A stretch of 64,000 bases of DNA. It comes from an uncultured Duncaniella sp. Lineage in GTDB: Bacteria > Bacteroidota > Bacteroidia > Bacteroidales > Muribaculaceae. Positions 8,007 through 22,900 of this stretch are shown piece by piece. Both the position numbers and the translations under genes were made by a program. Location: the NCBI GenBank assembly GCA_910578615.1, contig CAJTRI010000001.1, positions 162,172 to 226,171 on the forward strand, given 5' to 3'. Every line of letters begins with the position of its first letter. Within the stretch, counting starts at the first letter, position 1. The notes beneath the pieces are model-generated. The model was not told the DNA's origin. It saw only the letters and a program-made list of their open reading frames with translations, and did not search any database.

Positions 8007-8041
8007 TTTGCTGATAAATTCGCTAAATTTGCGTAAATTTG
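8007..8041 (+). promoter_or_regulatory. Candidate promoter with a duplicated -7 box (TAaaTTTG at 8024-8031 and 8034-8041)
   Basis: The sequence is ccaTTTGctgataaattcgcTAAATTTGcgTAAATTTGcat. The -33 TTTG at 8007-8010 is 23 nt from the second box, which is slightly long. Confidence 0.35.
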
Positions 8042-8076
8042 CATTACTGCATGTACCTTTAAACCAACAAGAAGAT

Positions 8077-8853
8077 ATGCCCGAGAACCCTCCCGCCGCC
8101 CCGGTCGATGCGAAATGGACCGAGATTGAACACCTCCCCGAATGGGACGAGGAATTTTATCATGTCTATACCGCTAAGAAGCATGGCAAATGGCTGATGC
8201 TTAAAACCCTGCGTCCCGAGTTGAAGGGGATTTCGGAGTATGAGAAGATGATAGAGAAGGAATTCGAGGTGCGTTACAATCTGGCACATCCACATATCAT
8301 CATGATCAATGATTTCGAGGAGGTGCCGGGACTGGGGATGTGCATAATCACCGATGATGTCTACGGAGACTCCCTTGCCAAGCTGATACGGGAGAAGAAG
8401 GTGACAGACGACCATATCTATAAGCTCCACCACCAGCTTCTTGACGCGCTTGACTATATCCAGACCAATCATCTGGCCCATCATCCGCTTGATTCCTCAC
8501 GTGTCATCTTTACCGAGAATATAGGTAACCTCAAACTCATCGACGTGGGATTTGACCAGAAGAACTTCCTGACCCATGCGGACACGGCTGAGGATATCTA
8601 TAACTACGGTGTCCTTCTCAACGAGGCTCTGGATGCCGTGGAGACACAGCATCCCCGCTTGCGCCGCATAGCCGCGCGTTGTGTCAATCCCGATCCTTCC
8701 AAACGTTACCCCACTCTCAACGCCCTGCGCCTCGCCCTTGCCGACAAGCGCGAGAGAATGCTTTTTATTGCAATCATACTGTTCCTGCTGGCCATGATAG
8801 CCCTGCTCCTCTGGTTGAATTCGGCTTTCAGGCCAGTCCCACAAATTTCCTGA
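8077..8853 (+). CDS. Membrane-anchored protein-kinase-like protein with a degenerate catalytic loop (predicted pseudokinase)
   Basis: Kinase-fold landmarks are present: beta3 Lys in WLMLKTL and alphaC Glu in EKEFEVRYNLAHPHI. The HRDLKPxN position reads HHPLDSSRV and DFG reads DVG. A C-terminal TM helix is present (MLFIAIILFLLAMIALLLWL). The start is set at MPENPP (ATG 8077), downstream of the promoter boxes. Confidence 0.6.
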   Translation: MPENPPAAPVDAKWTEIEHLPEWDEEFYHVYTAKKHGKWLMLKTLRPELKGISEYEKMIEKEFEVRYNLAHPHIIMINDFEEVPGLGMCIITDDVYGDSLAKLIREKKVTDDHIYKLHHQLLDALDYIQTNHLAHHPLDSSRVIFTENIGNLKLIDVGFDQKNFLTHADTAEDIYNYGVLLNEALDAVETQHPRLRRIAARCVNPDPSKRYPTLNALRLALADKRERMLFIAIILFLLAMIALLLWLNSAFRPVPQIS

Positions 8854-8856
8854 CCC

Positions 8857-9987: not shown

Positions 9988-11135
9988 TGGGGCCGGGACG
10001 TTTGAAAATACTCCTTCTCGGTGACGCGAGCAACTTCCACCACACTCTGGCTTCGGGGTTGGAGCGTCTGGGACATGACGTCACCGTGGCCTCGGAGGGC
10101 GGTGGATGGATGAGAACCGCTAAGGATATTGACATATCGCGTCCGCTGGCCGGCAGATTAGGCGGTATGGCATTATGGCTGCGCCTGCTGTCTGGATTGC
10201 GTAAGAAGCTTACCGGCTTTGACGTGGTATCAATACATTCTACCGGGTTTCTCAGTCTGCGTCCGCATCGCGTAAGGGCTGTCTATGACTACATCCTTCC
10301 GCGTAACCGTGGTGTGTTTCATTCCGTACTTGGCACGACTCCGTCATATGTCATGGAATGCATTGATCCCGAGACTGTCCTGAGATACAATGAGTTCAGG
10401 CTCTTCGGGTGTGAGTCTCCCTACTGTATGGAACATCCGGGCATAGTGGACGAATGGCTTTCCCCCCCTCTCGTGGGGCTTGAACGCCGTATCAATGACA
10501 CAATCCTCGGAGGAGTCACTGCCCTCTATGAATATGACGTGGCGCTGCGGCGCGCACTTCCGCCGGATAGGATCGCATACGGGGGTATTCCTGTGGATAC
10601 ATCCTCGATTCCGGCTGTCGGATTGCCTGACCGTATAGGGAGGGTGAGGATATTCCTCGGACGCCATAAAGGACGTCTTGCCGAGAAAGGTACCGACATC
10701 CTTGAAGCCGCAGCCCGTGCCGTTGTGGAGCGCTATCCCGATAAGGCCGAGCTGGTGATAGTGGAGAACCGTCCCTATGATGAGTATCTTTCCCTCCTTC
10801 GCTCGGCCCACATAGTCCTTGACCAGCTTTATAGTTACAGTCCGGCCACCAACGCCCTTCTGGCCATGGCCATGGGGCTGACCACCGTCTCGGGTGGGGA
10901 CGAGGCATATTATGACTTTATCGGTGAACGTGAGATGCGTCCTGTCCTCCATGTCGAGCCTGACTATGAGAGTGCCCGTGCGGTTCTCGAACATGCTGTC
11001 CTGAATCCTGAGACACTGAAAGTCCGTGGACGGGAGGGAAGAAGATTCGTCGAAAAACATAACGACTACGTGGTGGTGGCGCGCCGGAACGTAGACTTCT
11101 GGACGCGTCGTCTTGCAGAGGAGGGGCGCTTGTGA
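9987..11135 (+). CDS. GT-B fold glycosyltransferase (GT4/GT1-like)
   Basis: The start MGPGRLKILLLGDASNFHH is chosen at the TGATG overlap with the upstream stop. The C-terminal half is typical of GT-B (EKGTDILEAAARAV..LDQLYSYSPATNALLAMAMGL). Confidence 0.7.
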   Translation: MGPGRLKILLLGDASNFHHTLASGLERLGHDVTVASEGGGWMRTAKDIDISRPLAGRLGGMALWLRLLSGLRKKLTGFDVVSIHSTGFLSLRPHRVRAVYDYILPRNRGVFHSVLGTTPSYVMECIDPETVLRYNEFRLFGCESPYCMEHPGIVDEWLSPPLVGLERRINDTILGGVTALYEYDVALRRALPPDRIAYGGIPVDTSSIPAVGLPDRIGRVRIFLGRHKGRLAEKGTDILEAAARAVVERYPDKAELVIVENRPYDEYLSLLRSAHIVLDQLYSYSPATNALLAMAMGLTTVSGGDEAYYDFIGEREMRPVLHVEPDYESARAVLEHAVLNPETLKVRGREGRRFVEKHNDYVVVARRNVDFWTRRLAEEGRL

Positions 11136-11950
11136 TGACTCTTGACGTGCTCATATCCACTCATGGCCCCGAGGGTATACGCCGTGTCGGGCGCATGAAT
11201 ATGCCGTCTGTCGAAGGTGTGAGATATATAGTCACATGGCAGGGGCATGGAGGGGCAGAAATTCCTCCGTCCCTTCTCACGCGCGATGATGTGGAGGTGT
11301 GCCGTGTTGAGAGCATGGGGCTTAGCCGTAACCGTAACGAGGGAATATCACGTTCACGGGCCGATATCTATCTGATTGCCGATGATGACCTTCGCTACAC
11401 GATGCACGATCTTCGCGGTGTGATAGAGGCCTTTGAGAAACGTCCGTCCATGGATGTGGCTGTCTTTATGTATGACGGCCCTGACGGCAAGTCCTATCCC
11501 GCAGTGGAAACCCCGCTTTTCCCTTTGCCACGTGGCTACTTCCCCACCTCGTTCGAGATAGCCGTCAGACGGTCGGAACGCACCTCGGTGATGAGGTTTG
11601 ATCCACGTTTCGGACTCGGTTCGGGGGTGTTCCATGTAGGCGAGGAGGACGTTTTCCTACTTCACGGGCGCTCTCTCGGGCTTGACATGCGCTTTATACC
11701 CCATCGGGTGACCACTCATGCCGGTCTGACTACCGGGTTGCGTCAGATAAGTGACCCTCGGGTTCTGCGAGGTGCCGGTGCCGGAATCTTCTATTATTAT
11801 CCCGTGACGGCCGTTCTGCGTGTCCCCCTAAAAGCATGGAGGCTGTCACGCTCGGGCCGTGCGCCTTTGTTCCGTTCGCTTGTACAGCTTGCAATCGGGG
11901 CCTTGTATGCAGCCATCTTACTCCGAAAACCATGGGAAACCCCTCTCTGA
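11135..11950 (+). CDS. GT-A fold (family 2-like) glycosyltransferase
   Basis: MTLDVLISTHGPEG.., with a DxD region in YLIADDDLRY. The gene starts at a TGATG overlap with the upstream gene. Confidence 0.65.
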   Translation: MTLDVLISTHGPEGIRRVGRMNMPSVEGVRYIVTWQGHGGAEIPPSLLTRDDVEVCRVESMGLSRNRNEGISRSRADIYLIADDDLRYTMHDLRGVIEAFEKRPSMDVAVFMYDGPDGKSYPAVETPLFPLPRGYFPTSFEIAVRRSERTSVMRFDPRFGLGSGVFHVGEEDVFLLHGRSLGLDMRFIPHRVTTHAGLTTGLRQISDPRVLRGAGAGIFYYYPVTAVLRVPLKAWRLSRSGRAPLFRSLVQLAIGALYAAILLRKPWETPL

Positions 11951-13374
11951 GACATCACGGAAACGCTCTCTCACGCACCGTGTTCAAGGCCATGGGGGTC
12001 TTTGGCGGTATGCAGGTGTTCTCTATCCTCTGCGGCATAGTGAGGATAAAGCTTATAGCTGTCTGGCTCGGGACGGCCGGCGTGGGGTTGTTTGCTATCT
12101 TCAATTCCGCCGTTACCCTTGTCTCCGGGTTCTCCCAGCTCAACCTGCGCACGAGCGCCGTCCGTGCTATCGCATCGGGGCATGATGGCAGGTCGCTCGC
12201 GTCGGTCATCTATTCCGTCAGGAAACTGGCGTTGTGGCTCGGGCTGGCCGGCGTGGCCGTAATGCTACTCTCGGCTCCTGTTTTCAGTTTGCGCACGTTC
12301 GGCTCATTCGAGATGACAGGCAGTTTTATGCTCCTTGCGGTCGCGGTCTTCGTTATGTCGCTGACCATGGCTGAACAGGCCGCTCTCCAAGGCCTTGAAC
12401 GTATGCGCGCTCTTGCCATCAGCAATATCCGGGGTGTAGGTATAGGGCTGGTGGTCAGTCTGCCATTACTCTATTTTTTCAGAATGGAGAGCGTGGCATG
12501 GGTCATAATGGCTTATTCTTTCACAACGTGGCTTGGTGTGAGGTGGTCGAGGGCCGAGGTGACTCTTGCAGGGCCTGCGCCCAAGGTCAGGGAGGTGTGG
12601 GAAATCGGACGCCCTATACTTATAATGGGTTTCTATCTTACTCTTGCGGCCGTTCTTGCGGAATTGTGCTCTTATATCTTCATCGCCTATCTCAACCACA
12701 GTGGTGGCACTTCGGAAGTCGGACTGTTCCAGTCGGGCTACACCATTGTCAACCGCTATATGGGCATGGTGTTTTCAGCCATAGGGATGGAGTTTTTTCC
12801 TCGTCTCACCTCGGCTTCTGTCTCTCCCTGTCGGACACGCATCTTCGTGGCTCATGAGATTCTGCTCCTTACCATGGTGATGCTCGGGATTGTCTCGATT
12901 TTCATTCCTTTGGCTCCGTTGGGAGTGAGGATGCTCTATACCTCGGATTTTCTTGCTATCGTCCCGTTTGTGATTTTGTCAATGCCGGGGGTGATTATTC
13001 AGGGTGTTAGCTGGTGTCTGGCCTATGTCATACTTGCCCGTGGTGACGGACGTGTCTATATGGCGGTTGAGATATTCAGCACCCTTACCACCATAACACT
13101 CAACATATTGTTTTACCGATATTGGGGCCTTCCCGGCGTAGGACTTTCATTCACTCTTTACTATTTGGCGTATCTCTTTGTCCTCCTGCCTATATATTAC
13201 AGACGCTATCGTCTCAACATCCCGGTCAGGACTATATGGATCGTTGTCACCGTCTTTGTGGCTGTATGCGTCACCTCTGCGACAGCCTTGTTGTTCAATC
13301 CGTTGTGTTCGCTATTTATTGCAGTCCCTTCCCTTCTCATCTCCATCCTATCCGTACGCCGGCTCTTGGGTTGA
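11932..13374 (+). CDS. Wzx-like oligosaccharide/polysaccharide flippase (MOP superfamily)
   Basis: About 480 aa and polytopic, with 12 or more hydrophobic helices. The N-terminus reads ALSRTVFKAMGVFGGMQVFSILCGIVRIKLIAVWLG. The start is set at the internal ATG 11932 and overlaps the GT-A stop by 19 nt. Confidence 0.8.
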   Translation: MGNPSLRHHGNALSRTVFKAMGVFGGMQVFSILCGIVRIKLIAVWLGTAGVGLFAIFNSAVTLVSGFSQLNLRTSAVRAIASGHDGRSLASVIYSVRKLALWLGLAGVAVMLLSAPVFSLRTFGSFEMTGSFMLLAVAVFVMSLTMAEQAALQGLERMRALAISNIRGVGIGLVVSLPLLYFFRMESVAWVIMAYSFTTWLGVRWSRAEVTLAGPAPKVREVWEIGRPILIMGFYLTLAAVLAELCSYIFIAYLNHSGGTSEVGLFQSGYTIVNRYMGMVFSAIGMEFFPRLTSASVSPCRTRIFVAHEILLLTMVMLGIVSIFIPLAPLGVRMLYTSDFLAIVPFVILSMPGVIIQGVSWCLAYVILARGDGRVYMAVEIFSTLTTITLNILFYRYWGLPGVGLSFTLYYLAYLFVLLPIYYRRYRLNIPVRTIWIVVTVFVAVCVTSATALLFNPLCSLFIAVPSLLISILSVRRLLG

Positions 13375-13391: not shown

Positions 13392-14063
13392 TCATAGATA
13401 CTCTGACAGACTTTCTATGTCCGGGAGTATTAAGGTGCCGGTGGGGATTTCTTCTATCTGGCTCTCGTCCCACGGCACACCCTTGATGAGGGCTGTGGGA
13501 CATCCCAGCGCCGTTGCCGGGACTATATCCTTGTTTACGCTGTCACCAACCACGAGTGTCTCTCTCCCCGTCAGTCCCAAGGAATCCAAACCGATGCGGA
13601 ATATGGCCGAATCCGGCTTGCGAACCCCTACCCTTCCGCTGTCTGTCACCGAACGGAACAGATGCCTTATACCATATGTCCGCAAGACGGTATCAAGGTT
13701 GCCGTAGAAATTAGATACTACAGCCATAGTATAACGTCTGCCGAGGCTTTCAAGCACCTTCCGGGAACGGTTGACACATTCACGTGTCTTATTGTCGCAG
13801 TTTCGGGCTATGCGCCATGCAAGGGTGTCATCGCTGATTCCTATACTTTGCAACTGGATTCTTATCTTCTTTTCAAGCAGATTAAGCATCGTGTCCCCCC
13901 GGCTCACAAGCGGCTGGATGCCGCGTTCTCCCGCTATATAGGCATCGCGTGACAGTTCTAAGCCTTCCTCACGGTAGGCTCTTCCGATGACGTGATACCA
14001 ATGGTCGCCTCGGGAGTCTATCGTACCCCCGTAGTCAAATATTATCCCCTTGATACCTTCCAT
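13392..14063 (-). CDS. HAD-superfamily hydrolase/phosphatase
   Basis: HAD motif I is IIFDYGGTID. Motif III/IV is VGVRKPD ... LVVGDSVNKDI. The start is set at MEGIKG (ATG 14063). Confidence 0.75.
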   Translation of the reverse strand: MEGIKGIIFDYGGTIDSRGDHWYHVIGRAYREEGLELSRDAYIAGERGIQPLVSRGDTMLNLLEKKIRIQLQSIGISDDTLAWRIARNCDNKTRECVNRSRKVLESLGRRYTMAVVSNFYGNLDTVLRTYGIRHLFRSVTDSGRVGVRKPDSAIFRIGLDSLGLTGRETLVVGDSVNKDIVPATALGCPTALIKGVPWDESQIEEIPTGTLILPDIESLSEYL

Positions 14064-14982
14064 TTTCGAGTTCGCGGGTGAGGCGGCGGCATATTCCTTC
14101 GTGGCGGATGACCATATAGACAGCCAGTGCGTTGAGAAGGGTGAGTTCGTAGACAAAATACAGCCATGGCATTCCCATGAAGAGCGTGATGAAAAGTCCT
14201 ATCGTGCGCCAGTTGAATGTGAGTATGTTGGTGTATTTCATCAACGGCAGGGACAGGCGGCGGAACTCCTTGCGGAACCCTTCGGGAATGCGTCCGTCCG
14301 GGAAACGGCGTTTCAGTTCGCGTCTCAGTCTCTGCATGGCGGGTGACGAGGCCTCCTGACCGAGAGTGTATCCAAGATAGATTCTCATTGTCAGACGTTT
14401 CCAGAAACCGGCATGTTTCTGTTCTTCAAGCTGCCGCCTGAGCGAGGTGGCGCTGTCAAGCTCGCTGCCATCCTCTCCTTTGAGGAAGTACAGATGGAAC
14501 TGGCGGTAATAGTCGGCCATAGAGGCCTGTCTTGCGTGGCAGATTCCGGCGGTTCCCGCCGTCACCCACAATATCCAGTGGTGGGACTCGAAGAGCGATA
14601 CCGACATGTTGCCTCTGAGCACTATGGCGATATAGATTGATGCAAACCAGAAGTCGCCGCTCATCCCGTCAAGTATGCGCCCGAGACGTGAGTATTGCCG
14701 GGTCATGCGTGCCAGTTGTCCGTCGGCACTGTCAAAGGAGTTGGCCCATATGAGGAGCAGCATCCCGGCTACATTGACCATAAGGTCTGGGAAGTAGAAC
14801 AGCACACCGGCTCCAACCCCGAGAAATATCGAGGCTATGGTTATGGCGTTTGGGGTGATGCCGAGCCGGGCGGCTATCTTGGCCCATACGAACCCGATCG
14901 GCCGATAGAAGGCAAGGTCGATCCGCTCCTCGGTATCCATTGATTTGAGCGAGTCCCGATATTCCTCTTTCCAGCTTCCCAT
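14035..14982 (-). CDS. CDP-alcohol phosphatidyltransferase family protein (second copy, divergent motif spacing)
   Basis: FDSADGQLARMTRQYSRLGRILDGMSGD matches DxxDGxxAR..G..D, but the last two Asp residues are 4 residues apart rather than 3. The protein is polytopic. Confidence 0.75.
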   Translation of the reverse strand: MGSWKEEYRDSLKSMDTEERIDLAFYRPIGFVWAKIAARLGITPNAITIASIFLGVGAGVLFYFPDLMVNVAGMLLLIWANSFDSADGQLARMTRQYSRLGRILDGMSGDFWFASIYIAIVLRGNMSVSLFESHHWILWVTAGTAGICHARQASMADYYRQFHLYFLKGEDGSELDSATSLRRQLEEQKHAGFWKRLTMRIYLGYTLGQEASSPAMQRLRRELKRRFPDGRIPEGFRKEFRRLSLPLMKYTNILTFNWRTIGLFITLFMGMPWLYFVYELTLLNALAVYMVIRHEGICRRLTRELENGRYQGDNI

Positions 14983-14989
14983 TATTCAG

Positions 14990-15919
14990 TTATCCGGCTA
15001 TATAGCCTTTGTAAGCCTCCATGAATCTTCTGAATATGCCCAGCCTCATAAGCACCTTTTCGAACAGCAGCCAGCCGAGGATTGTGACACCTATTCCGGC
15101 AATGACATCGATTATATAGTGGTGGGAGGTATATACCGCCGTCCACCATATCCCGAGGCATATAAAGGCAAAGATGGCTCTGAGCCACCATCCGCAGCGT
15201 GCGCGCAGCGAATAGATGAACGCTATGAGCATATATGCGGCATGGAGTGACGGCAGTGCCGCGAAGACGTTGGAGTTGCGGGAATACAGTCCGTCAAAGA
15301 TGGCGGTGCCCGTCATGGCGTCCCAGGCTGACAGACCGGCGGTCTCGCCGTGTGTGCCGGGGATGAATTCAAATCCGTGCATGGCCACATACCACGGCGG
15401 GGCGGCGGGATGGATGTAATATCCGGCGAATCCCAGAAGGTTCACGAAGAGAAATACCAACGAGAAGTGGAGGTAGACCTCGTATTGCCGTCCGAAATAG
15501 AGCCACAGTCCGAAAATTATGGGTACGGGAACCCAGCATAGATAGAAGCATCCGGCCATGAAGTCAAGAATCTTTGAAGTGTGGGCTGCCCACCATTCGT
15601 TGGGGGTGGAAGATCCTATTCCGAACAATGATTTTTCGGCATCGTAGAGTCCGCGTATGTCCACAGGATTGACCTCGTAGTTGGGCAGGATATTCATCCA
15701 GTCATACGAAATCCCGAACACAATGAACGGAAGTAGGGCCACAACCATTCTGCGGGTAGCGCCGGTGGCAAAGAGCAGTATGGTGAGCAGGGCGAGGATA
15801 TATACATGTTCTGTGCGCAGACCCACGAATAGCCCCGTGACGAGGAGCCACAGGCCGAGGATGGCTATGATGACGGCGCTTTCGCGTGTTGTAGCCGAGG
15901 TGCGTGCTGTTGATGACAT
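14990..15919 (-). CDS. PAP2_3 / Aur1-like phosphotransferase (inositol-phosphorylceramide synthase family)
   Basis: Polytopic protein. The motifs ALPSLHAAYM and YTSHHYIIDVIAG correspond to the C2 and C3 (H-H-Y-x-x-D-V) motifs of the Aur1/sphingomyelin-synthase-like PAP2 branch. Confidence 0.7.
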   Translation of the reverse strand: MSSTARTSATTRESAVIIAILGLWLLVTGLFVGLRTEHVYILALLTILLFATGATRRMVVALLPFIVFGISYDWMNILPNYEVNPVDIRGLYDAEKSLFGIGSSTPNEWWAAHTSKILDFMAGCFYLCWVPVPIIFGLWLYFGRQYEVYLHFSLVFLFVNLLGFAGYYIHPAAPPWYVAMHGFEFIPGTHGETAGLSAWDAMTGTAIFDGLYSRNSNVFAALPSLHAAYMLIAFIYSLRARCGWWLRAIFAFICLGIWWTAVYTSHHYIIDVIAGIGVTILGWLLFEKVLMRLGIFRRFMEAYKGYIAG

Positions 15920-15925
15920 CGCCGG

Positions 15926-16639
15926 TTACTTTTTGATGAGCTGTCGGCGCGCGTGATCCACGCGGGCAAATGCTGTGAGGTTGGCAAACACGGCTATAAT
16001 GCCCATGGCAACTATGAGGATGACGGCGGCATCAAATTCTCCCGGGTTCACAGAAAGCCCGGTTATGCCTGTGGCAAGGCAGCCGGCGGCAGTGACCACC
16101 ACTCTCTCGGGGCGCTGCATGAAGCCTATCTTGCATTCCAGTCCGAGACCTTCGGCACGTGCACGTACATAGCTCACCATTATTGAGCCTACGAGGGCCA
16201 CGAATGTGACGAGTGCCCCTGCCACATAGCCCTTTTGGAGCAGGTAGTAGGATATGCCTCCGAGGGTGAAAAGCTCGCAGTAGCGGTCAAGCACGGAGTC
16301 ATACATTGCTCCGAATGTTGTTGCCATATTTCCAAGGCGCGCCACCTGTCCGTCGAGCATGTCGAACAGGGAGAAAAGGATGATGATGGCGCCGGCCCAT
16401 GTCACCAGATCATAGTTCATCTCCGAAGGGGTGCCTGTATAACCGGCATAGACCAGTATGCCGGCTGCGGCGATATTGCCGAGAAGGCCTATCGTGGTGA
16501 CTATGTTTGGGGTGATGCCTATGCGGATAAGCAGTCTCACAAAGGGGTTGATGACACAGTAAATCCCCTGTTGGAGCGCGTCGCGCATTTTCTTGAACGT
16601 GGAGACCTTGTTTTCCATTGTTATGTTGGTTTCTGCCAT
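15926..16639 (-). CDS. CDP-alcohol phosphatidyltransferase (canonical motif; candidate PI/PIP synthase)
   Basis: The canonical D1xxD2GxxARx8Gx3D3x3D4 motif is present as FDMLDGQVARLGNMATTFGAMYDSVLDR. The track start is a TTG at 16678. I prefer ATG 16639, which leaves 4 nt after the GtrA stop. Confidence 0.85.
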   Translation of the reverse strand: MAETNITMENKVSTFKKMRDALQQGIYCVINPFVRLLIRIGITPNIVTTIGLLGNIAAAGILVYAGYTGTPSEMNYDLVTWAGAIIILFSLFDMLDGQVARLGNMATTFGAMYDSVLDRYCELFTLGGISYYLLQKGYVAGALVTFVALVGSIMVSYVRARAEGLGLECKIGFMQRPERVVVTAAGCLATGITGLSVNPGEFDAAVILIVAMGIIAVFANLTAFARVDHARRQLIKK

Positions 16640-16643
16640 TATT

Positions 16644-17201
16644 TTAGTTGTGTTTTCGGAGGTTAAAGGCATTGACAAACCTTATAGCATAGTTGTCAAA
16701 GCCGTTTTTCTTGTAGACGAAATTCTTCTGCATCAAGAAGTTCCAGAATATAGAGACTATCAGTGACACACTCAGGCGCGCGGCGGCGTAGAAGCCGTTT
16801 GGCTTGAATCCGAGATCTTCGGCCAGGAACGGGAACTTGTTAAGCAGTTCATAGACCAGTTGGGTTCCGTAGACGTTAAGGAGCAGGCTTCCTAACCATA
16901 TCATGGCATATTTAACCACCACGGCCTTGACAGGGACATCGGAGGCATGGAAGGTAAACCGATAGTTGATGCAACAGTTGACGATGCCGCCGCAGACGGC
17001 GCCTATGGCTGTCGAGAGCCACGGGGCGAGGTGGATGAACGCGAAGAAGACAAATCCCACACCCATGTCGATCCATGATGCTATCTGTGAGGATATGGAC
17101 GAGCGGAGGAAGGTGGTTACTATGTCGCCACCGTGGAGGAACCTGTCTTTCAGACGTGATATATTTTCAGGCATAGATTGGATTGCTGGGATTGGTTGCA
17201 T
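16644..17201 (-). CDS. GtrA-family membrane protein
   Basis: 185 aa with 4 TM helices. The GtrA signature reads CCINYRFTFHAS. Confidence 0.8.
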   Translation of the reverse strand: MQPIPAIQSMPENISRLKDRFLHGGDIVTTFLRSSISSQIASWIDMGVGFVFFAFIHLAPWLSTAIGAVCGGIVNCCINYRFTFHASDVPVKAVVVKYAMIWLGSLLLNVYGTQLVYELLNKFPFLAEDLGFKPNGFYAAARLSVSLIVSIFWNFLMQKNFVYKKNGFDNYAIRFVNAFNLRKHN

Positions 17202-17205
17202 GGCT

Positions 17206-18072
17206 TTATTTGTTTCGGCTCTTTATTTCGGCAAGTATAGCCCGGGCTATCACGGCGGAAGCCTCTATTCGGCAGGGCGCATAGCTGGGCCAGTCGTTAA
17301 GGTCGATGATATGGAATGTCCCGTCGGGGGCCACGATGGCGTCGCCGCCGTAAAGCTTTATGTCGAGTATGTCGGCTGCGCGCGAGCAGGTCTCCTTGAA
17401 TCTGTCGAGGTCAAAGCGCGGTGTGGGGCCGGGCATCGAGGAGGAGTCGTCCCCTTGCGGGGAGTAACTTTTCTCAAAGGGATAGAACCACTGGAACCAC
17501 GGAGTCCCGTTGACGCCGTAAAATTTGACCTGTTCCCCGTCCAGATGTCTCATGATGACGGCCCGCTTGATACCGCGCAGGAAGTATTCTTGGAGCACCT
17601 CCTGTGCCTCACCAGGGTGGCGGACATAGGTGACGTCCTCTTTGTGCTGGGCATAGAGGTCGCCTCTCTTGATCCATGCGCGTTCCATCCCGACGGCCTC
17701 CATCTTGGCGGTCACGGTCTGGTTGGTATTGACCATAAGACAGTCGGGGTAAGGGATGCCTGATCCGAGAAGGATGCGCGATAGGCGTTCGCGGGTACAG
17801 TTTTCCACCCCGTAACCCGAGTTGATGACAAGGCATCCGTCATCTTCCATGGCTTGGAGGACTGGAAAGGAGCGATGGTCGCGGCACATGTGGATTACGA
17901 CCCGTTCACTGACGGCTCCGGCTATAAGCTGTTCCTCGCTGTAAAGTCTCACCTCGCAGCCGCGTTTGCGGAGCTGTTCGGCAGTGAGGTTGAGGATGGC
18001 GGCGTCGTTGCCTATATGGTTGGGGGAGTAGGCTCCCGCGCGCAGTACGGCGGCAATCTTTATTTCGGCCAT
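17206..18072 (-). CDS. ATP-grasp fold protein, possibly an inositol(-phosphate) kinase-like enzyme
   Basis: 288 aa. The pre-ATP-grasp N-terminus is followed by WIKRGD..H and the C-terminal Mg-site motif FHIIDLNDWPSY. This D-x-N-x-aromatic-P-x-Y pattern is the one I remember from ITPK1-family kinases (VIDINAFPGY) rather than the E-x-N of ligase-type ATP-grasp enzymes. Confidence 0.5.
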   Translation of the reverse strand: MAEIKIAAVLRAGAYSPNHIGNDAAILNLTAEQLRKRGCEVRLYSEEQLIAGAVSERVVIHMCRDHRSFPVLQAMEDDGCLVINSGYGVENCTRERLSRILLGSGIPYPDCLMVNTNQTVTAKMEAVGMERAWIKRGDLYAQHKEDVTYVRHPGEAQEVLQEYFLRGIKRAVIMRHLDGEQVKFYGVNGTPWFQWFYPFEKSYSPQGDDSSSMPGPTPRFDLDRFKETCSRAADILDIKLYGGDAIVAPDGTFHIIDLNDWPSYAPCRIEASAVIARAILAEIKSRNK

Positions 18073-18788
18073 TGTGATTGGATTGGTTTATGGTTTGTAA
18101 GGGCCTCGGCGGCGGCGATGTCGCTTATGTGGTCAACATCTATGATGCGGCTGAACTGGAAGGCCCGGAGTCTCATGCCGGCAGCCACGAGGGAACGCTG
18201 GAAGTCACGCATCCGGGTGAGTCCCGCTGACATGCATTCATCGAGCAGGGAGAGTGTGGACGGTTTCAGAATGTATATCCCTCCCGAGACATAGGATGAG
18301 CCTGAGGCCGGAGTGTCGAAAAAGCCTGTAATCTCCATTTCGGGTGTGACAGCCACATATAGCGGCTTTTCGTCATCCAGATAGGTAGTCACGGCCATGA
18401 GGGCGTCACACTCCGGCCCGGAACCGAATGCGTCCGCATAGGCATCGAACTCTTCGGGATGGAAGACGGCGTCCACCGTTGCCAGACAGAACGCCTTGTC
18501 CCGCAGTCTCGGGGCGAGTGCCGCGAGGGAGTGCATAGACCCGGGGGTGGTCTTGACCGTCACATGGAGCGGCACGTTGATTTTGAGGCTTTCGAGATGA
18601 TGTCTCACCTCGCCACCCTCCTCGCTGACGATTATTTCCAGCCCTTCGCAGTCATGTCGCGAGGCCATGATCAGTGCCAGACGCTCTATCAGCGGCACTC
18701 CGCTGACGCGCACAAGAGGCTTGGGGAGGGTGATTCCCTCCCCGGCCAGGCGGGAGCCTTGTCCGGCGGCGATGATGGCATAGATCAT
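18060..18788 (-). CDS. NTP-transferase (sugar/alcohol-phosphate cytidylyl- or nucleotidylyltransferase)
   Basis: The N-terminal signature is MIYAIIAAGQGSRLAGEGITLPKPLVRVSGVPLIERL (GxGxRL..KPL). Confidence 0.8.
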   Translation of the reverse strand: MIYAIIAAGQGSRLAGEGITLPKPLVRVSGVPLIERLALIMASRHDCEGLEIIVSEEGGEVRHHLESLKINVPLHVTVKTTPGSMHSLAALAPRLRDKAFCLATVDAVFHPEEFDAYADAFGSGPECDALMAVTTYLDDEKPLYVAVTPEMEITGFFDTPASGSSYVSGGIYILKPSTLSLLDECMSAGLTRMRDFQRSLVAAGMRLRAFQFSRIIDVDHISDIAAAEALTNHKPIQSQWPK

Positions 18789-19880
18789 TTAGTTTTGCTC
18801 TCTTGGGACGCGGTCTGAGCCACGGTCGAAGTTTTGTTTCCGCAGAGGGTTGCGTGTCGCTTCGGCTTCGCGTATACGGTTGCGGTATATGTCCATGGCC
18901 GTATATATGGCTTCGCGCAGCGACTGCGGGTCGGCCACCCCTTTTCCTGCTATATCATAGGCAGTGCCGTGGTCGGGAGATGTTCTCACGAACGGGAGGC
19001 CGGCGGTGTAGTTGACCCCGTTCTCTCCGGCGAGGAGTTTGAACGGTGTCAGGCCTTGGTCGTGATACATGGCCAGTATGCCGTCAAACTTCTTGTATGT
19101 GCCGCTTCCGAAGAAGCCGTCGGCGGGATAAGGCCCGAATGAGAGCACCTTTTTCTTGCCGGCATCGGAGATGGCCGGGATGATTATGTCGGACTCCTCT
19201 GTCCCTATTACGCCGCCGTCCCCGGCATGGGGGTTGAGGGAGAGCACGGCGATGCGTGGGGAATGGATGCCGAAGTCCGTGACGAGGGAGCGGTTGAACC
19301 TCACGAGGCTGTCGGCTACCGCCTCGCGGGTCACCTTGCCGGTCACACCTGCAAGAGAGTCATGGATGGTCACTAACGCCACTCTAAGACCTTCGCCACA
19401 CATTATCATCATGGCTTTGTCGTCATCGTCTCCAAGCTCGGCTTCGAGATATTCCGTATGGCCGGGGAAGTCGAACTCCTCGCCATGGATGGAGTTTTTG
19501 TTTATAGGGCATGTGACGAGCACGTCTATCTCTCCCTCGCGAAGGTCTGCCACCGCGCGCCGCAGGGCGGCGAGGGCGGCGGCTCCCCCCTCGGGGGTGG
19601 CCTGTCCCGGTTCTACCCTCGTGTCTTCGGGGACTACGTTGACCATATATACTCGGTCAGTGGCGGAATCGGTCTCTGCGGGAGAGGCGATCTGGGTGAA
19701 TTTCACCTCCGGCAGGTTAAGGCTCTTGCGATAGAAGGCGGCTATTTTGGCAGAGCCGTAGATGACGGGGGTACACATCTCTCCGAGGCGTGTGTCCTCG
19801 AATGTTTTGAGAAGTGTCTCATATCCTATCCCGTTGATGTCTCCGTGGGTGATACCCACCTTTATCTTCTTGTTTTCCAT
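18789..19880 (-). CDS. pdxA: 4-hydroxythreonine-4-phosphate dehydrogenase family (PdxA)
   Basis: 363 aa. Matches include GITHGDINGIGYE, FPGHTEYL, NPHAGDGG and SPDHGTAYDIAGKG. The stop codon directly abuts the ATG of the next gene. Confidence 0.88.
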   Translation of the reverse strand: MENKKIKVGITHGDINGIGYETLLKTFEDTRLGEMCTPVIYGSAKIAAFYRKSLNLPEVKFTQIASPAETDSATDRVYMVNVVPEDTRVEPGQATPEGGAAALAALRRAVADLREGEIDVLVTCPINKNSIHGEEFDFPGHTEYLEAELGDDDDKAMMIMCGEGLRVALVTIHDSLAGVTGKVTREAVADSLVRFNRSLVTDFGIHSPRIAVLSLNPHAGDGGVIGTEESDIIIPAISDAGKKKVLSFGPYPADGFFGSGTYKKFDGILAMYHDQGLTPFKLLAGENGVNYTAGLPFVRTSPDHGTAYDIAGKGVADPQSLREAIYTAMDIYRNRIREAEATRNPLRKQNFDRGSDRVPREQN

Positions 19881-19910: not shown

Positions 19911-22900
19911 TTACTGCTGCTGGTCTATGATTGAGACTATGCGGTCGAAGTTTACGCCCATGTCGGTGAGTTCCTCCACCAGCGGCTCTGGGTCGCCGCC
20001 GAGGTCGGTATAATCTTGAAGCAGGTAGACCATGTAGTAGGTCTCTATGTAGCGGTCGGTCTGCGGGAGTGTTGCATACTGCCAAGGAGAGAGGCTCTGG
20101 TAATACCTGACATTGGCCGCGTAGCGGTGGAGTTCGTTGTTGATGAGGCTGAGGGCGCGTTCGGTGGCCTCCTTGTTATCGGTGGCCATGCCTATCCGTC
20201 CATATATCTGGGCCATCTTCTGGGGTATCTGTATGGCATAGGGAGAGGCGGTCTCTGGCAGTTTCTCCTCCATCAGCTTCATCAGGTTGAGGGCCTTGGC
20301 ATAGCGGTCGGCCTTGAATGCGGCAAGTGACTCGCGGTGTTCCGGCGAGATGGCCGCGCTGTCGGCGCGTTCGGCCATCACGGCCTCGTTGACAAAAGCT
20401 GTGGCAGTGTTGAGGATATATGAGCGCGTGGTTGTGACCATGCGGCGCACGGTCTCGTCAAGGTACACCTGTCCCGGGCCGGTCACTTTGTCGAGGCCTC
20501 CCCAGCGGAATTTCTCCGTGATGTTGCGGTATGCCTTCTCGGTGTTGACCGCCGTGATGTCATAGTCCGAATTTTCGGGATTGTAGACAGGGGTTATCTC
20601 ATATGCCATGCCGGTGGAACGCATGTAGGGTTGCAGACCGAGGTAATAGTCGCTCGGGACGGTCGAGGCAAAGTAGACCGGGCGGTTCCATCCGTTCTTG
20701 ATGGATGTGGCAAGCATGTCGAGTGACAGCACCTGGCTGAGCGACATCCCCCCGTGGCGCGATGACTCGCGGTCATTCTTCATATCGGCCTGTATCACGG
20801 TGTCGGCTGTCGCGGCCTCCTGCTCGGTGATGCGTCCGGCCTTGACGGCTGCTTCGAGGTCTACGGGGATGAACATGTTGGGATATTTCATCATCGGGGC
20901 ACCCCATGAGTTCTGGCTCGAAGCCGGGTCGTACAGCTGTCTAAGCGATGCGTAGACGTTTGTGGCCGTGGTGTCCTCGTCAACGGCGAAGTAGTTGAAG
21001 TTCATTCGGTCATAGGCATAGTCCTCTGGTTTGGCGAGGGTCTCGATGCCGGGGGCCTCGTAAGAGGCATGTTTCACCTGGTTGGCATACCAGTCGGTGG
21101 TCAGATAGGACAGGTTGACCACCTTGACATCTGTACGGTGTCCCTCAACTTCCTGTGCATACCACAGCGGGAATGTATCGTTATCGCCGTTGGTGAAGAT
21201 GATGGCATCCTTGTCAAGCGAGTCGAGATAATTCATGCCGAAATCTCTGGTCGTGTAACGGCCCGAGCGGTCATGGTCGTCCCAGGTCTGTGATACCATC
21301 TGGAATGGGATTATGAGTCCTAAAACGGTGGCTGCGATAGCGGCTGTCATGCTGTGGCGGTCTTCTGGATGCTCTTTGATGGTGCTTGTGGCCTTGCGGC
21401 TTAAAGCGGCGCGTATGATCCACCAGAGTCCGGCAACACCCATTCCGATCCATATGGCGAAGGCATAGAACGAGCCGGCGAAGGCGTAGTCACGCTCACG
21501 TGGCTGTGTCGGGGTCTGGTTGAGGTAGAGCACGATGGCTATGCCGGTCATGAAGAAGAGGAAGAATACCACCCAGAACTGCTCTATGCCCCTTTTTGAG
21601 ACAAAAGCCTGCCAGCATAGGCCTATGATGCCGAGGATGAGCGGAAGCATGTAGAACACGTTGTGGCCCGGGTTGTCCTTACCGTCAGATGCGGGCAGGA
21701 GGCTCTGGTCGCCGAGACGGATATCATCGATGAACGGTATGCCTGAAATCCAGTTGCCGTGGTTCACCTCGCCGTTGCCCTGTATATCGTTCTGGCGTCC
21801 GGCGAAGTTCCACATGAAGTAGCGCCAGTACATATGGTTGAGCTGGTAGACGAGGAAGAATCTCAGGCTCTCTCCCATGGTGGGCTTCACGCGGTCAGCG
21901 TGTTGGAGCACGTTCCCGTCACTGTCCACATACTGTGTGGCCTTTACAGGGTAGCCTTTCAGGCCGCCGATCCAGTCGGAATAGGCCTGCGTATGCTGGC
22001 CGCTGTATATGCGGGGGAAGAGCATGTCAAGCTCGGGGTTCATCTTGTAGTTTTTCTTGTAACCGACCAGACGGTACTCGTCCTTCTGGTCGGGCGAGGT
22101 CTTGGTCACCTTTGAATAGATAGGTGCTCCCGGGGTATAAAGGGGGGATAGCTGGCCTGTCGAGGAGTCCACCTCGTAGACCACGCCCGAGTTGTTGGTC
22201 TGTCCGTAGAAGAGAGGGCGTTCGCCGTATTGTTCGCGGTTGAGGTAGGATGCGAGTGAGAACACGTTGTCGGGCGCGTTCTGGTTCATAGGCGGGTTGG
22301 CGTTCGAACGTATGAGGAGGAGAGCGTAGCTCGAATAGCCTATGAAGATGACGAAGATACTCGTCACCACGAGGTTTAGTATTCTCACCGGCAGGGCCTT
22401 GGCAAAGAACAGATATCCCAGTACGGACGCCATGATAGCGGCAGGAATCCACATGCTGTCACCGATGAAGGGGATGCCCGAAAGGAGTATGCTCATTGCC
22501 ACGCTCCATCTGATTCGGGAGGCGCTTTTCTGAACATACAGTTCGCGGATGGCCCAGATGAAGGTGCCCACTGCAAGGACTGCATAAATGAGCACGCCCA
22601 TGTTGTAGCTCATGCCGAGTGTGTTGACGCAGAAAAGCTCGAAATACTGTGATACCTCGATGAAGCCCGGCACGAGTCCGTAGAGTATGAGTCCGACCAC
22701 TATGGCCGAAAGAGCCAGTGTGATGAGTGACCCCTTGGCCGTCGTGTCCTTCCAGAGGCGGTAATATACCACGAGGCCTATGGCCGGTATGCAGAGGAGG
22801 TTGAGAAGATGGACGGCGATGGAGATGCCTATTACGTAGGCAATGAGTATCAGGTACTTGTCGCTGTGTGGCAGGCCGGCGCGGTTCTCCCATTTGAGGA

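Follow-up and report, generated by a model that had tools for sequence, protein, structure and literature searches.

The functions of BT_1524, BT_1523 and BT_1522 in B. thetaiotaomicron have been examined by knock-outs, and BT_1524, a GtrA protein, sits within the inositol-lipid cluster of that species (PMC9246714). Heaver et al. 2022 proposed a second gene set, consisting of an NTP-transferase, a phosphotransferase (PT) and a HAD protein, as an alternative inositol-lipid route (PMC9246714). In B. vulgatus and P. veroralis this alternative set is the only one present, and both make plain phosphoinositol dihydroceramide (PI-DHC); P. veroralis has a PT-HAD fusion (Heaver et al., PMC9246714). In B. 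sedimenti the alternative cluster runs pdxA, a fused NTP-ATP-grasp gene, PT, LPG_synthase_TM, HAD and MIPS; the same set occurs in Prevotella. A preliminary description of the locus studied here had named both the B. thetaiotaomicron cluster and a proposed Prevotella-type route, in agreement with Heaver et al. 2022 (PMC9246714).

Layout of the eight-gene operon

The operon comes from a mouse-gut, Duncaniella-like Muribaculaceae bacterium and lies within a 64,000-nt stretch of DNA, here called the window. Positions 13392-19880 hold eight genes, all on the minus strand, and all of the ORFs were verified. An HMM domain check assigned PdxA, NTP_transf_3/NTP_transferase, GtrA_DPMS_TM, CDP-OH_P_transf (twice), PAP2_3 and HAD_2. 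From pdxA to HAD, the genes and the evidence for them are:

18789..19880, minus strand: pdxA (4-hydroxythreonine-4-phosphate dehydrogenase); TIGR00557 362 bits (cut-off 290 bits), Pfam PdxA 361 bits
18060..18788, minus strand: NTP-transferase, a sugar-phosphate-type nucleotidyltransferase; Pfam NTP_transf_3 / NTP_transferase
17206..18072, minus strand: ATP-grasp protein whose family has no Pfam model; AlphaFold fold and Foldseek
16644..17201, minus strand: GtrA-family small membrane protein; Pfam GtrA_DPMS_TM 38.9 bits; alternative start 17174
15926..16639, minus strand: PT1, a predicted CDP-alcohol phosphatidyltransferase, BT_1523-like; CDP-OH_P_transf, PIPSynBT1523 model
14990..15919, minus strand: PAP2_3 / Aur1-like protein, predicted BT_1522 equivalog; NCBIfam NF052609, Pfam PAP2_3
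14035..14982, minus strand: PT2, a CDP-alcohol phosphotransferase of the alternative type; CDP-OH_P_transf, identity to alternative-cluster transferases
13392..14063, minus strand: HAD-IA phosphatase; Pfam HAD_2, Hydrolase, Hydrolase_like

In the same order, the recomputed junctions are 0, -13, +4, +4, +6, +7 and -29 nt, identical to those of the preliminary description, which had reported eight tightly packed minus-strand genes. In public gene calls GtrA begins 9 codons further in, so that the protein has 176 aa and the junction is +31. We found no convincing candidate for a terminator inside the operon, and we infer co-transcription of the eight genes from their spacing. Eight other species-level genomes (L007-L014) have the eight genes in the same order, which is therefore not a chance arrangement. 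The pdxA gene lies directly upstream of the NTP-transferase gene in most Muribaculaceae loci and in B. sedimenti; it is absent from that position in Prevotella L089 and in several loci that begin with ATP-grasp. It probably takes no part in the pathway and is only a conserved neighbour.

Two gene sets in one locus

The GtrA, PT1 and PAP2_3 genes are colinear with their B. thetaiotaomicron homologues BT_1524, BT_1523 and BT_1522. GtrA, the counterpart of BT_1524, may be a flippase or accessory protein. The preliminary description had listed it among the unusual parts of the operon, a view that does not hold for a protein with a counterpart inside the B. thetaiotaomicron cluster. PAP2_3 matches the NCBIfam model for phosphoinositol dihydroceramide synthase (NF052609, PhinosDhcerSyn) over residues 10-307 of 309 with 481.5 bits (E 1e-144), a margin of only 1.5 bits over the cut-off of 480; its Pfam PAP2_3 score is 83 bits, and its translation contains the motifs PSLH and HHYIIDV. 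By passing the NF052609 cut-off it is predicted to be an Aur1-like PI-DHC synthase, the equivalog of BT_1522. PT1 has PIPSynBT1523 as its best NCBIfam match (284.9 bits, E 5e-85), below the cut-off of 350, followed by archaetidylinositol-phosphate synthase (2.5e-38) and PIPSynth (2.3e-37). It carries the canonical D-x2-DG-x2-AR-x8-G-x3-D-x3-D and appears to be a phosphatidylinositol-phosphate synthase-like, BT_1523-like enzyme.

The NTP-transferase, PT2 and HAD correspond, judged by sequence, to the published alternative set of the B. vulgatus/Prevotella type, with 40-52% identity to the alternative-cluster proteins of B. sedimenti and Prevotella. PT2 had been considered an unusual second transferase; it is instead a regular member of that set. 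Its full-length identity is 52% to the B. sedimenti transferase and 49% to the Prevotella one, and both counterparts keep its variant G-x3-D-x4-D ending, with the last aspartate shifted. The NTP-transferase shares 47-52% identity with the N-terminal half of the NTP-ATP-grasp fusions found in the B. sedimenti and Prevotella clusters. It contains GQGSRL...KPL and matches IPCT/DIPPS NF041135 (9e-5) and the IPCT structure PDB 2XME (7e-3) weakly. It is a candidate CTP:inositol-phosphate cytidylyltransferase of marginal similarity to IPCT. The motifs quoted in the preliminary description for PAP2_3, PT1, PT2 and the NTP-transferase are all present in the translations. HAD shares 40-41% identity with its counterparts in the B. 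sedimenti and Prevotella clusters; NCBIfam and further family searches identified no specific subfamily for it. It directly follows PT2 in nearly all related loci, with an overlap of 29 nt in the window. A literature search found no biochemical data for the alternative-module proteins or for any Muribaculaceae lipid.

We compared 80 species-level loci, 32 of which carry PT1 and PAP2 and 48 of which lack both. Core loci have the order NTP-ATPg-PT2-HAD(-MIPS), where ATPg is the ATP-grasp gene. In expanded loci, PgpA-GtrA-PT1-PAP2(-acyltransferase) is inserted between ATPg and PT2, and one locus (L096) combines both modules again in a different gene order. We hold with high confidence that the operon is a composite, with a B. 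thetaiotaomicron-type cassette nested in a B. vulgatus/Prevotella-type alternative module. The clade of the window has lost the PgpA-type PIP phosphatase (BT_1525) and kept PT1; a clade lacking this phosphatase is new, and its absence had escaped the preliminary description.

That description had also treated the lack of MIPS, the inositol-3-phosphate supplier, as unusual. MIPS is indeed missing from the operon and the window: two validated MIPS probes returned nothing in tblastn at E<=10 across the 64,000 nt, and a Pfam scan of all 350-520 aa ORFs of the window yielded no MIPS. The absence is, however, positional and a matter of lineage. MIPS directly follows HAD in about half of the 80 loci, and two genomes with the window architecture (CP061009.1 and JAMPHR010000002.1) carry it unlinked, ~55 and ~130 kb away. 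The genomes of these relatives suggest that here, too, MIPS is encoded elsewhere. Because MIPS adjoins the module in many loci, the module is tied to inositol phosphate. Together with NF052609 and the BT_1523 model, this adjacency supports the earlier proposal of a variant or expanded inositol (sphingo)lipid pathway.

The ATP-grasp protein

The ATP-grasp protein has no Pfam match at E<0.01, and the preliminary description had nonetheless classified it correctly. Its AlphaFold model (pLDDT 84) retrieves D-Ala-D-Ala ligase (Ddl), PsnB, ArgX and RimK in Foldseek (E ~1e-13, TM ~0.6-0.7), and at the level of the model the fold is confirmed. We found 977 cluster representatives that match the protein. 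Many homologues are NTP-ATPgrasp fusions of ~515-550 aa, NTP-ATPgrasp-PT triple fusions also exist, and both kinds are widespread. ATPg, PT2 and HAD are neighbours in nearly all 80 Muribaculaceae loci, apart from the inserted cassette where present, and in the window the gene overlaps that of the NTP-transferase by 13 nt. The protein is very likely an obligate member of the alternative route. Among the parts formerly called unusual it is the one that stays so, being the sole truly undescribed component of the operon. What is new is that this enzyme, so far overlooked, is part of the second inositol-lipid route, which is poorly understood.

Perhaps the protein is a carboxylate-amine or carboxylate-hydroxyl ligase that decorates the headgroup or makes a different activated alcohol, so that the product is not a plain phosphoinositol lipid? 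Its nearest structural and sequence relatives are such ligases (Ddl, PsnB, RimK, ArgX, with DcsG also among the top Foldseek and profile matches), an observation that counts against a kinase. NCBIfam gives weak matches to RimK-family and MptN ligases, and weak Pfam matches fall on ATPgrasp_ST and RimK just as often as on Ins134_P3_kin. Having both modules in one operon would also make sense if their products differed. However, species with only the alternative set yield PI-DHC of ordinary mass (PMC9246714), MIPS adjacency links the module to inositol phosphate, and a ligase would leave the obligatory HAD without a role. We consider this explanation improbable.

A kinase acting on inositol or inositol phosphate is our tentative assignment, held at somewhat less than even confidence. 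In the family profile, ITPK1-family kinases follow PsnB and RimK at 1e-4 to 1e-3, and the C-terminal IIDxNDWPSF aligns with the ITPK motif D-x-N-x-[FL]-P-S-[FY]; aligned at the same place, RimK and PsnB have the less similar E-V-N and E-L-N. These ITPK matches are weak and mainly cover the C-terminal Mg-binding motif, and ITPK1 is not among the best 50 Foldseek matches. Besides this motif, the points in favour of a kinase are the plain PI-DHC of species with only the alternative set, the MIPS-less Prevotella, the use of exogenous inositol by T. forsythia and a Planctomycetota cluster, all taken up below.

Proposed routes and their rivals

Our best overall explanation, which we judge likely, is a composite inositol (sphingo)lipid operon with two routes. 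In route 1, by homology to the characterised pathway, PT1 would join CDP-diacylglycerol and inositol-3-phosphate to give PIP-DAG. A phosphatase would turn this into PI-DAG; as the operon has no PgpA-type enzyme, that role presumably falls to HAD. PAP2_3 would then move phosphoinositol onto dihydroceramide to give PI-DHC. In route 2, as we infer it, the ATP-grasp protein would phosphorylate inositol-3-phosphate or free inositol, the NTP-transferase would produce CDP-activated inositol (phosphate), and PT2 would pass the activated headgroup to a lipid alcohol, dihydroceramide or diacylglycerol. HAD is proposed to strip the remaining inositol phosphate and probably takes over from the lost PgpA-type enzyme as well. 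That one operon would hold two routes to the same lipid counts against this explanation. The R. marinus IPCT/BEPIS pathway, which reportedly needs no kinase or phosphatase, counts against route 2.

Since plain PI-DHC is made where only the alternative set exists, the pairing of an ATP step with a phosphatase points to a phosphate that is added and later removed more than to a ligated adduct. That the clade of the window kept PT1 but lost PgpA supports HAD as a lipid-headgroup phosphatase, and with HAD in that role all known fusions link consecutive steps. Its action after PT2 is a cautious suggestion, to which we give somewhat less than even odds.

HAD could instead act before the transferase, in a Kennedy-like salvage. 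Here HAD would free myo-inositol from the MIPS product, or inositol would be imported; the ATP-grasp protein would re-phosphorylate free inositol at D-1, the NTP-transferase would make CDP-inositol, and PT2 would hand its headgroup to diacylglycerol or dihydroceramide. The MIPS product is a D-3-phosphate and the PI linkage is at D-1, a stereochemical difference that would account for the extra steps. A Planctomycetota cluster joins HAD and an NTP-ATPgrasp fusion with an inositol-dehydrogenase-family (GFO/IDH/MocA) enzyme and an aminotransferase; enzymes of these kinds typically use unphosphorylated cyclitols as substrates. T. forsythia makes inositol lipids from exogenous inositol alone, with no kinase identified (PMC4587543). 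MIPS is missing from many Prevotella that have the alternative set, which would suit salvage; some with only the B. thetaiotaomicron-type set lack it as well, and MIPS-less genomes are therefore not a specific call for ATP-grasp. Against salvage, the P. veroralis fusion and the constant adjacency of the overlapping PT2 and HAD genes suggest consecutive steps, the PgpA loss makes more sense with HAD as a lipid-headgroup phosphatase, and no inositol transporter is evident beside the operon. Salvage seems unlikely to us.

The scheme of Heaver et al. 2022, taken unchanged, has the NTP-transferase make CDP-inositol, PT2 form PI-DAG with diacylglycerol and HAD serve as PI-DHC synthase, with ATP-grasp irrelevant. 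It was put forward by the discoverers of the cluster (PMC9246714), and its NTP-plus-transferase logic has experimental precedent in R. marinus IPCT/BEPIS. However, ATP-grasp is fused to the NTP-transferase, or to NTP-transferase and PT, in many lineages. Proteins of the HAD-IA type are phosphatases in solution and not phosphotransferases of the membrane, which conflicts with a PI-DHC synthase role, and the window and 31 other species loci keep HAD beside a bona fide PAP2_3 PI-DHC synthase. In this form the scheme is very improbable.

Finally, ATP-grasp might phosphorylate dihydroceramide, with the NTP-transferase making CDP-dihydroceramide, PT2 coupling it to inositol-3-phosphate and HAD removing the phosphate. 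PT2 would then mirror PIP synthase with CDP-DAG. Its weak NCBIfam matches, the best among families, are AIP and PIP synthases, which pair CDP-lipid donors with an inositol phosphate acceptor; every fusion would join consecutive steps, and PI-DHC would arise without a PAP2_3 enzyme. However, among solved structures PT2 comes nearest to AF2299 (1.8e-6), ahead of PIP synthases and IPCT/DIPPS, and AF2299 is close to the DIPPS group, whose enzymes use CDP-inositol. No membrane segments are predicted in the NTP-transferase or the ATP-grasp protein, and lipid substrates are not known for either fold. A CDP-ceramide route is extremely unlikely.

Comparison with the B. thetaiotaomicron and Prevotella clusters shows that the operon combines both. 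We conclude that it is put together from two gene sets already described and does not stand apart from them: a single operon holds both the set with which Bacteroidetes make inositol lipids and the one proposed to serve them for the same purpose.

Operon layout and the BT-type cassette

The preliminary description had placed eight co-directional ORFs in one tightly packed operon. All eight are present, and the recomputed junctions (0, -13, +4, +4, +6, +7 and -29 nt) are identical to those it gave; the sole caveat on layout is the GtrA start, which lies 9 codons later in public gene calls. The operon and its glycan-related flanks are as follows.

7984-13374, plus strand: convergent-strand flank with a protein-kinase-like gene, a GNAT-like gene, GT4 and GT2 glycosyltransferases and a Wzx-type flippase
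13392-19880, minus strand: the operon, in the order pdxA, NTP-transferase (NTP), ATP-grasp (ATPg), GtrA, first CDP-alcohol phosphatidyltransferase (PT1), PAP2_3, second CDP-alcohol transferase (PT2), HAD
18789-19880, minus strand: pdxA, joined to NTP by the 0-nt junction
19911-23387, minus strand: a 1158-aa TMEM260-like protein O-mannosyltransferase homologue, 30 nt upstream of pdxA

We considered whether the operon extends functionally into the TMEM260-like gene and rejected this, as the synteny is mainly confined to the Duncaniella clade. Within the operon, simple scans found no convincing internal terminator. A scan for sigma-70 promoters and intrinsic terminators gave counts close to the shuffled expectation, with a tool that has no coverage of Bacteroidetes promoters. 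From the spacing, we infer that the eight genes are co-transcribed. An identical ATP-grasp protein, in the same gene order, occurs in the MAGs GCA_949022995.1 and GCA_949050285.1, and its closest named relatives are from Duncaniella and other Muribaculaceae. In GCA_949022995.1, which is of the window's species, PT2 is broken (L001:13091-13940): 10 nt stand in place of about 108 nt of the window's version, leaving a called fragment of just 112 aa. The break may reflect a genuine frameshift or pseudogene carried by one population, or else a fault of assembly.

An HMM search returned Pfam matches to PdxA, NTP_transferase/NTP_transf_3, GtrA_DPMS_TM, CDP-OH_P_transf (twice), PAP2_3 and HAD_2. The motifs read earlier from the sequence (PSLH, HHYIIDV, the canonical PT1 and variant PT2 motifs, and GxGxRL...KPL) were all found in the translations. 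The PAP2 gene had been assigned to the Aur1/IPC-synthase branch, and the assignment holds: its product matches NF052609, the equivalog model for phosphoinositol dihydroceramide (PI-DHC) synthase, over its full length at 481.5 bits, passing the cut-off of 480 by just 1.5 bits. The best NCBIfam match of PT1 is NF052561, built on BT_1523 (284.9 bits, E = 5e-85, under the cut-off of 350); generic PIP and AIP synthase models match at 1e-37 to 1e-38, also under their cut-offs. PT1 carries D-x2-DG-x2-AR...G-x3-D-x3-D. With these two matches, the reading of the operon as a variant or expanded inositol (sphingo)lipid pathway is supported, subject to the corrections given below.

Directly upstream of PT1 lies GtrA (Pfam GtrA_DPMS_TM, 38.9 bits), and the window's GtrA-PT1-PAP2_3 is colinear with BT_1524-1523-1522. 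Knock-outs in B. thetaiotaomicron identified BT_1522 as the PI-DHC synthase, BT_1523 as the synthase of phosphatidylinositol phosphate (PIP-DAG), BT_1525 (PgpA family) as the PIP phosphatase and BT_1526 as MIPS, the inositol-3-phosphate supplier; deletion of BT_1524 (GtrA family) gave no lipid phenotype (Heaver et al. 2022, PMC9246714). BT_1522 is 26% identical to its eukaryotic counterpart (PMC9246714). GtrA is thus present as described, and its listing among the unusual parts of the operon falls, since BT_1524 is the GtrA-family member of the B. thetaiotaomicron cluster.

Two members of that cluster have no neighbour here. A tblastn search with the PgpA of a related locus (L024; Pfam PF04608, 130 bits) found no PgpA-type PIP phosphatase in the window or in L007-L014, the loci with the window's eight-gene order; the same query found PgpA in 23 other expanded loci. 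The reported absence of MIPS from the operon and the whole window was borne out: tblastn at E<=10 with A. fulgidus and B. thetaiotaomicron probes (the former 100% identical to PDB 1U1I, the latter residues 34-415 from 7NWR) and a Pfam scan of ORFs of 350-520 aa both came back empty for the 64 kb. The Duncaniella MIPS is highly conserved and stands by itself, with lptC and a CNNM-family gene upstream. In two genomes with the window's architecture, the distance between MIPS and the operon is about 55 kb (the complete genome CP061009.1, L013) and about 130 kb (JAMPHR010000002.1, L011). Judged from sequence, we conclude that the operon is partly of the B. thetaiotaomicron (BT) type, having its synthase and lacking its PgpA and MIPS.

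The alternative module and its ATP-grasp member

To what, then, do the remaining genes belong? An alternative cluster of NTP-transferase, CDP-alcohol transferase and HAD hydrolase beside MIPS has been proposed for B. vulgatus and most Prevotella, with exceptions to the MIPS adjacency such as P. copri (PMC9246714). The B. vulgatus members, still at the proposal stage, are BVU_RS13095, 13105 and 13115 plus MIPS (Heaver et al. 2022, PMC9246714). In Bacteroides sedimenti we found the order pdxA, a 516-aa 'NTP transferase', a CDP-alcohol transferase (302 aa), LPG_synthase_TM, HAD and MIPS; a Prevotella contig has the same order minus pdxA. Both the cluster-specific subfamilies of the window's NTP, PT2 and HAD and their order match these clusters, with identities as tabulated.

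Identity of window proteins to the B. sedimenti and Prevotella cluster proteins
Window protein; counterpart; B. sedimenti; Prevotella
NTP; N-terminal half of the long 'NTP transferase'; 52%; 47%
ATP-grasp; C-terminal half of the long 'NTP transferase'; 36%; 33%
PT2; cluster transferase; 52%; 49%
HAD; cluster HAD; 41%; 40%

At the sequence level, the operon therefore appears to be fully of the proposed alternative type. The second transferase had been called divergent, and it is: its motif, DSADGQLAR-x8-GRILD-GMSG-D, has the last Asp shifted by one relative to D-x2-DG-x2-AR-x8-G-x3-D-x3-D. This G-x3-D-x4-D spacing is common to PT2 and its B. sedimenti and Prevotella orthologues, and because the Pfam CDP-alcohol domain is still significant (46.7 bits), PT2 belongs to the family in spite of its altered motif. 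PT2, NTP and HAD fall within the published sets, being 40-52% identical to alternative-cluster proteins. NTP matches the IPCT/DIPPS model NF041135 at 9e-5, with the match confined to residues 5-115, and PDB 2XME at 7e-3; its match to glucose-1-phosphate cytidylyltransferase is stronger (6.5e-6). No substrate could be assigned to NTP, PT2 or HAD from sequence searches of PDB.

We rejected a pathway role for pdxA, because several clusters lack it and its product is a genuine PdxA equivalog. The gene lies directly upstream of NTP in the window, in B. sedimenti (L087:6884-7984) and in most of L007-L086, hence in two families, and is absent there from the Prevotella contig (L089) and several loci that begin with ATPg. 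The adjacency could be inherited synteny or a functional link.

The ATP-grasp protein matched no Pfam model at E<0.01, and single-sequence searches of Pfam, NCBIfam and PDB gave marginal matches only, so that a profile and a structure model were needed. An AlphaFold model built with 16 homologues (pLDDT 84) matched D-Ala-D-Ala ligase, PsnB, ArgX/LysX, RimK and DcsG in Foldseek (E about 1e-13, TM 0.6-0.7), from which we conclude that the original ATP-grasp call was correct. Across 83 diverse homologues, K135, D244, D257 and N259 are invariant or nearly so, in keeping with the Lys and the Asp/Asn Mg ligands of the three-domain ATP-grasp fold.

The family extends well beyond the window, with 977 cluster representatives (50% identity) matching it. 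Of ten unusually long matches tested, seven were NTP_transferase-ATP-grasp fusions and one an NTP-ATP-grasp-CDP-OH_P_transf triple fusion. A search with one fusion gave 706 relatives at E<=1e-10; of the 120 listed, nearly all were 500-560 aa with both halves covered, and Bacteroides, Bacteroidaceae, Dysgonamonadaceae, Alloprevotella and Prevotella were among the matches listed. Pfam annotates no more than the N-terminal half of these relatives. A second triple fusion (865 aa, L096:751-3348) lies on a contig that combines both modules in an order different from the window's, [NTP-ATPg-PT]-HAD-GtrA-PT1-PAP2_3-acyltransferase-MIPS. In public annotation, the triple fusions (this one and the 814-818-aa P0245 and P0289) are named solely 'CDP-alcohol phosphatidyltransferase family protein'. 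The 691-aa homologue P0218 has a PAS-HisKA-HATPase_c histidine kinase N-terminal to its ATP-grasp domain, either as a genuine fusion or through an error in gene calling.

Heaver et al. make no reference to an ATP-grasp component (PMC9246714). The self-match E-value of their B. vulgatus NTP-transferase, 2e-179, equals that of the HAD (Supplementary Table 5, PMC9246714), which implies a length of about 250 aa for the former. A tag that goes unmentioned there, BVU_RS13100, lies between the B. vulgatus NTP-transferase and transferase (PMC9246714). From this position and the short NTP-transferase, we infer that BVU_RS13100 is the B. vulgatus ATP-grasp. On these comparisons, the ATP-grasp protein appears to be a hidden, constant member of the alternative module.

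In a scan of one genome per GTDB species, at least 567 genomes encode a close ATP-grasp relative. The best 80 of these are all Muribaculaceae, some under wrong MAG names, and we surveyed loci by tblastn with the window proteins, the L024 PgpA and acyltransferase, and the MIPS probes. Among the best 80, ATPg, PT2 and HAD lie side by side almost without exception; NTP is normally upstream, usually preceded by pdxA; and MIPS directly follows HAD in about half. Core-only loci, NTP-ATPg-PT2-HAD(-MIPS), account for 48. The other 32 are expanded by an insert between ATPg and PT2, whose full form is PgpA-GtrA-PT1-PAP2_3-acyltransferase. Both the acyltransferase and the adjacent MIPS are gone from the D. 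muris group (L015-L023), and the window's group (L007-L014) has lost PgpA as well. Hence, by the survey pattern, the window operon is a BT-type cassette nested in another module, in reduced form.

Several loci depart from these patterns or carry further genes. In L018 (MAG NALB_7813_17), NTP-PT2 lies at 1447-3099, about 7 kb upstream, pdxA is followed by ATPg-GtrA-PT1-PAP2, and no HAD was found in the locus. Many Muribaculaceae clusters carry an OlsF/GlsA-like lyso-lipid O-acyltransferase (Acyltransf_2; L024:13621-14478, L096:6907-7728) between the PI-DHC synthase and PT2 or MIPS; the window has none, and the enzyme may acylate an inositol lipid. The contigs of L007, L011, L021 and L028 are Muribaculaceae MAG contigs with implausible titles ('uncultured Staphylococcus sp.', 'Paenibacillus sp.'), and the MIPS on the L011 contig is named as Paenibacillus in NCBI.

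Putative routes to inositol lipids

For the cassette, a first route would follow from homology to tested enzymes. PT1 would make PIP-DAG from CDP-DAG and inositol-3-phosphate, a phosphatase would convert this to PI-DAG, and PAP2_3 would make PI-DHC. The window clade kept PT1 and lost PgpA, which makes HAD the obvious substitute, and the HAD phosphatase probably replaces the PgpA-type PIP phosphatase. The published scheme would instead make HAD the PI-DHC synthase, an unlikely role that we rejected, as a PAP2_3 synthase co-occurs.

A second route must use all four module proteins, because fusions link NTP-ATPg, NTP-ATPg-PT and PT-HAD, the last in P. veroralis (Heaver et al., PMC9246714). Species with the alternative module only make ordinary PI-DHC (PMC9246714). 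An ATP-consuming enzyme and a phosphatase, together with this ordinary product, suggest a transient phosphate. In the order that we favour, the ATP-grasp protein would act as a kinase on inositol-3-phosphate, the NTP-transferase would form a CDP-activated inositol phosphate, PT2 would transfer it to dihydroceramide or diacylglycerol, and HAD would dephosphorylate the product. Each known fusion would then join consecutive steps, and the product would have the usual D-1 linkage. The main rival to this order puts HAD first, as an inositol-monophosphate phosphatase followed by the kinase in a Kennedy-like salvage; a CDP-ceramide route is another.

Is the ATP-grasp protein a kinase at all? Its family profile matches ITPK1-family kinases (1Z2N, 7PUP and human ITPK1) weakly, at 1.2e-4 to 1.6e-3, mostly within the C-terminal D-x-N...PSF motif; ligases score equally or better. 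The Mg-binding motif D-x-N-x-x-P-S-[FY] is common to the family and ITPK and aligns with E-V-N in RimK and E-L-N in PsnB. Weak Ins134_P3_kin matches appear in 8 of the 83 family members. The protein could instead be a ligase: its nearest structural relatives are ligases, and ITPK1 is absent from the top 50 Foldseek matches. Also counted against a kinase is the R. marinus IPCT/BEPIS pathway, which reportedly needs neither kinase nor phosphatase (PMC4587543).

Besides the ITPK1 matches, three observations hint at the kinase. P. buccalis and P. timonensis have strong matches to both gene sets and none to MIPS, and MIPS is also missing from about a dozen other Prevotella that carry the alternative set (Supplementary Table 5, PMC9246714); neither the co-occurrence nor the MIPS pattern is discussed there. 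T. forsythia relies on exogenous inositol only, with no known candidate for a kinase (PMC4587543). In a Planctomycetota MAG (GCA_016197205.1, L097:6312-15121), HAD, an NTP-ATP-grasp fusion, a class-III aminotransferase, a GFO/IDH/MocA oxidoreductase, two CDP-alcohol transferases and LPG_synthase_TM are clustered with MIPS absent, which suggests a pathway to a cyclitol-derived (aminocyclitol-type) phospholipid headgroup.

Tentatively, then, and as a possibility rather than a probability, we propose that the ATP-grasp protein, stand-alone or as the fused C-terminal half in Bacteroidales, is the missing bacterial inositol or inositol-phosphate kinase and forms with the cytidylyltransferase, PT2 and HAD a four-step kinase-cytidylyltransferase-phosphotransferase-phosphatase route to inositol lipids. 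If so, the headgroup would have its D-1 stereochemistry set by this route, and MIPS-less host-associated Bacteroidetes, many Prevotella and perhaps Tannerella among them, could build inositol sphingolipids from host or dietary inositol.

Relation to known systems

Most of the operon is explained by the 2022 work. New are the nested single-operon arrangement and the ATP-grasp protein as a constant member, together with the probable substitution of HAD for PgpA and a candidate inositol kinase. Since the ATP-grasp protein is constant and often fused, a scheme without an ATP-dependent step is incomplete. The operon points to a specific gap, open to testing, in the alternative pathway as proposed and offers a concrete candidate for the inositol kinase of bacteria that use exogenous inositol for lipids. 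Nor are the two routes mere alternatives, being repeatedly combined in single operons in the Muribaculaceae, which are a dominant mouse-gut family. Muribaculaceae lay outside the survey of Heaver et al., who showed that the inositol sphingolipids made by gut Bacteroidetes influence capsule expression, resistance to antimicrobial peptides and fitness in the host (PMC9246714). Literature searches on Muribaculaceae inositol lipids, follow-up of the alternative pathway and ATP-grasp proteins with CDP-alcohol clusters returned nothing relevant beyond Heaver 2022.

With the fungal Aur1 IPC synthase/sphingomyelin-synthase branch of PAP2, the window's PAP2_3, a bacterial protein of 309 aa, has in common the domain, PSLH and HHYIIDV. 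The reaction type, transfer of phosphoinositol from PI to ceramide, is the same, demonstrated for BT_1522 and predicted for the window protein. ITPK1-family kinases share the ATP-grasp fold and Mg-binding motif with the ATP-grasp protein, and RimK and PsnB score as well or better. The archaeal/Thermotoga IPCT-DIPPS system has the same set of MIPS, cytidylyltransferase, CDP-alcohol transferase and a phosphatase acting on a phosphorylated product, and NTP and PT2 weakly match NF041135, PDB 2XME, 4MND and AF2299 (E 1e-2 to 1e-6); there, however, the product is a soluble osmolyte and ATP-grasp is absent. R. marinus reportedly uses a MIPS-IPCT-BEPIS pathway, said to have been described by Jorge, Borges and Santos in 2015 and summarised in PMC4587543. 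By description it follows a common logic, in which inositol phosphate is activated by a soluble cytidylyltransferase before a CDP-alcohol transferase passes phosphoinositol to a lipid alcohol, and its genes are clustered with MIPS. ATP-grasp and HAD are unreported there, and the acceptor is dialkylether glycerol.

Two further close systems are found in Bacteroidales. With BT_1522-BT_1526 (PMC9246714; also PMC8791184) the window shares the order GtrA, PIP synthase (here PT1, under the cut-off of the BT_1523 model), PI-DHC synthase, the likeness of GtrA being one of Pfam family and gene position; the PgpA-type phosphatase (BT_1525) and adjacent MIPS (BT_1526) are absent from the window. The BT cluster stands alone, whereas the window's cassette is embedded in another module. 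With the B. vulgatus/Prevotella cluster, compared through the B. sedimenti and Prevotella proteins, the window shares NTP, PT2 and HAD in the same order. MIPS follows HAD in many Muribaculaceae as it does there, but not in the window, which also lacks the LPG_synthase_TM gene. Finally, ATP-grasp is a separate gene in the window and the unannotated C-terminal half of the 'NTP transferase' in Bacteroides and Prevotella, and into the window's version of the module a BT-type cassette has been inserted.
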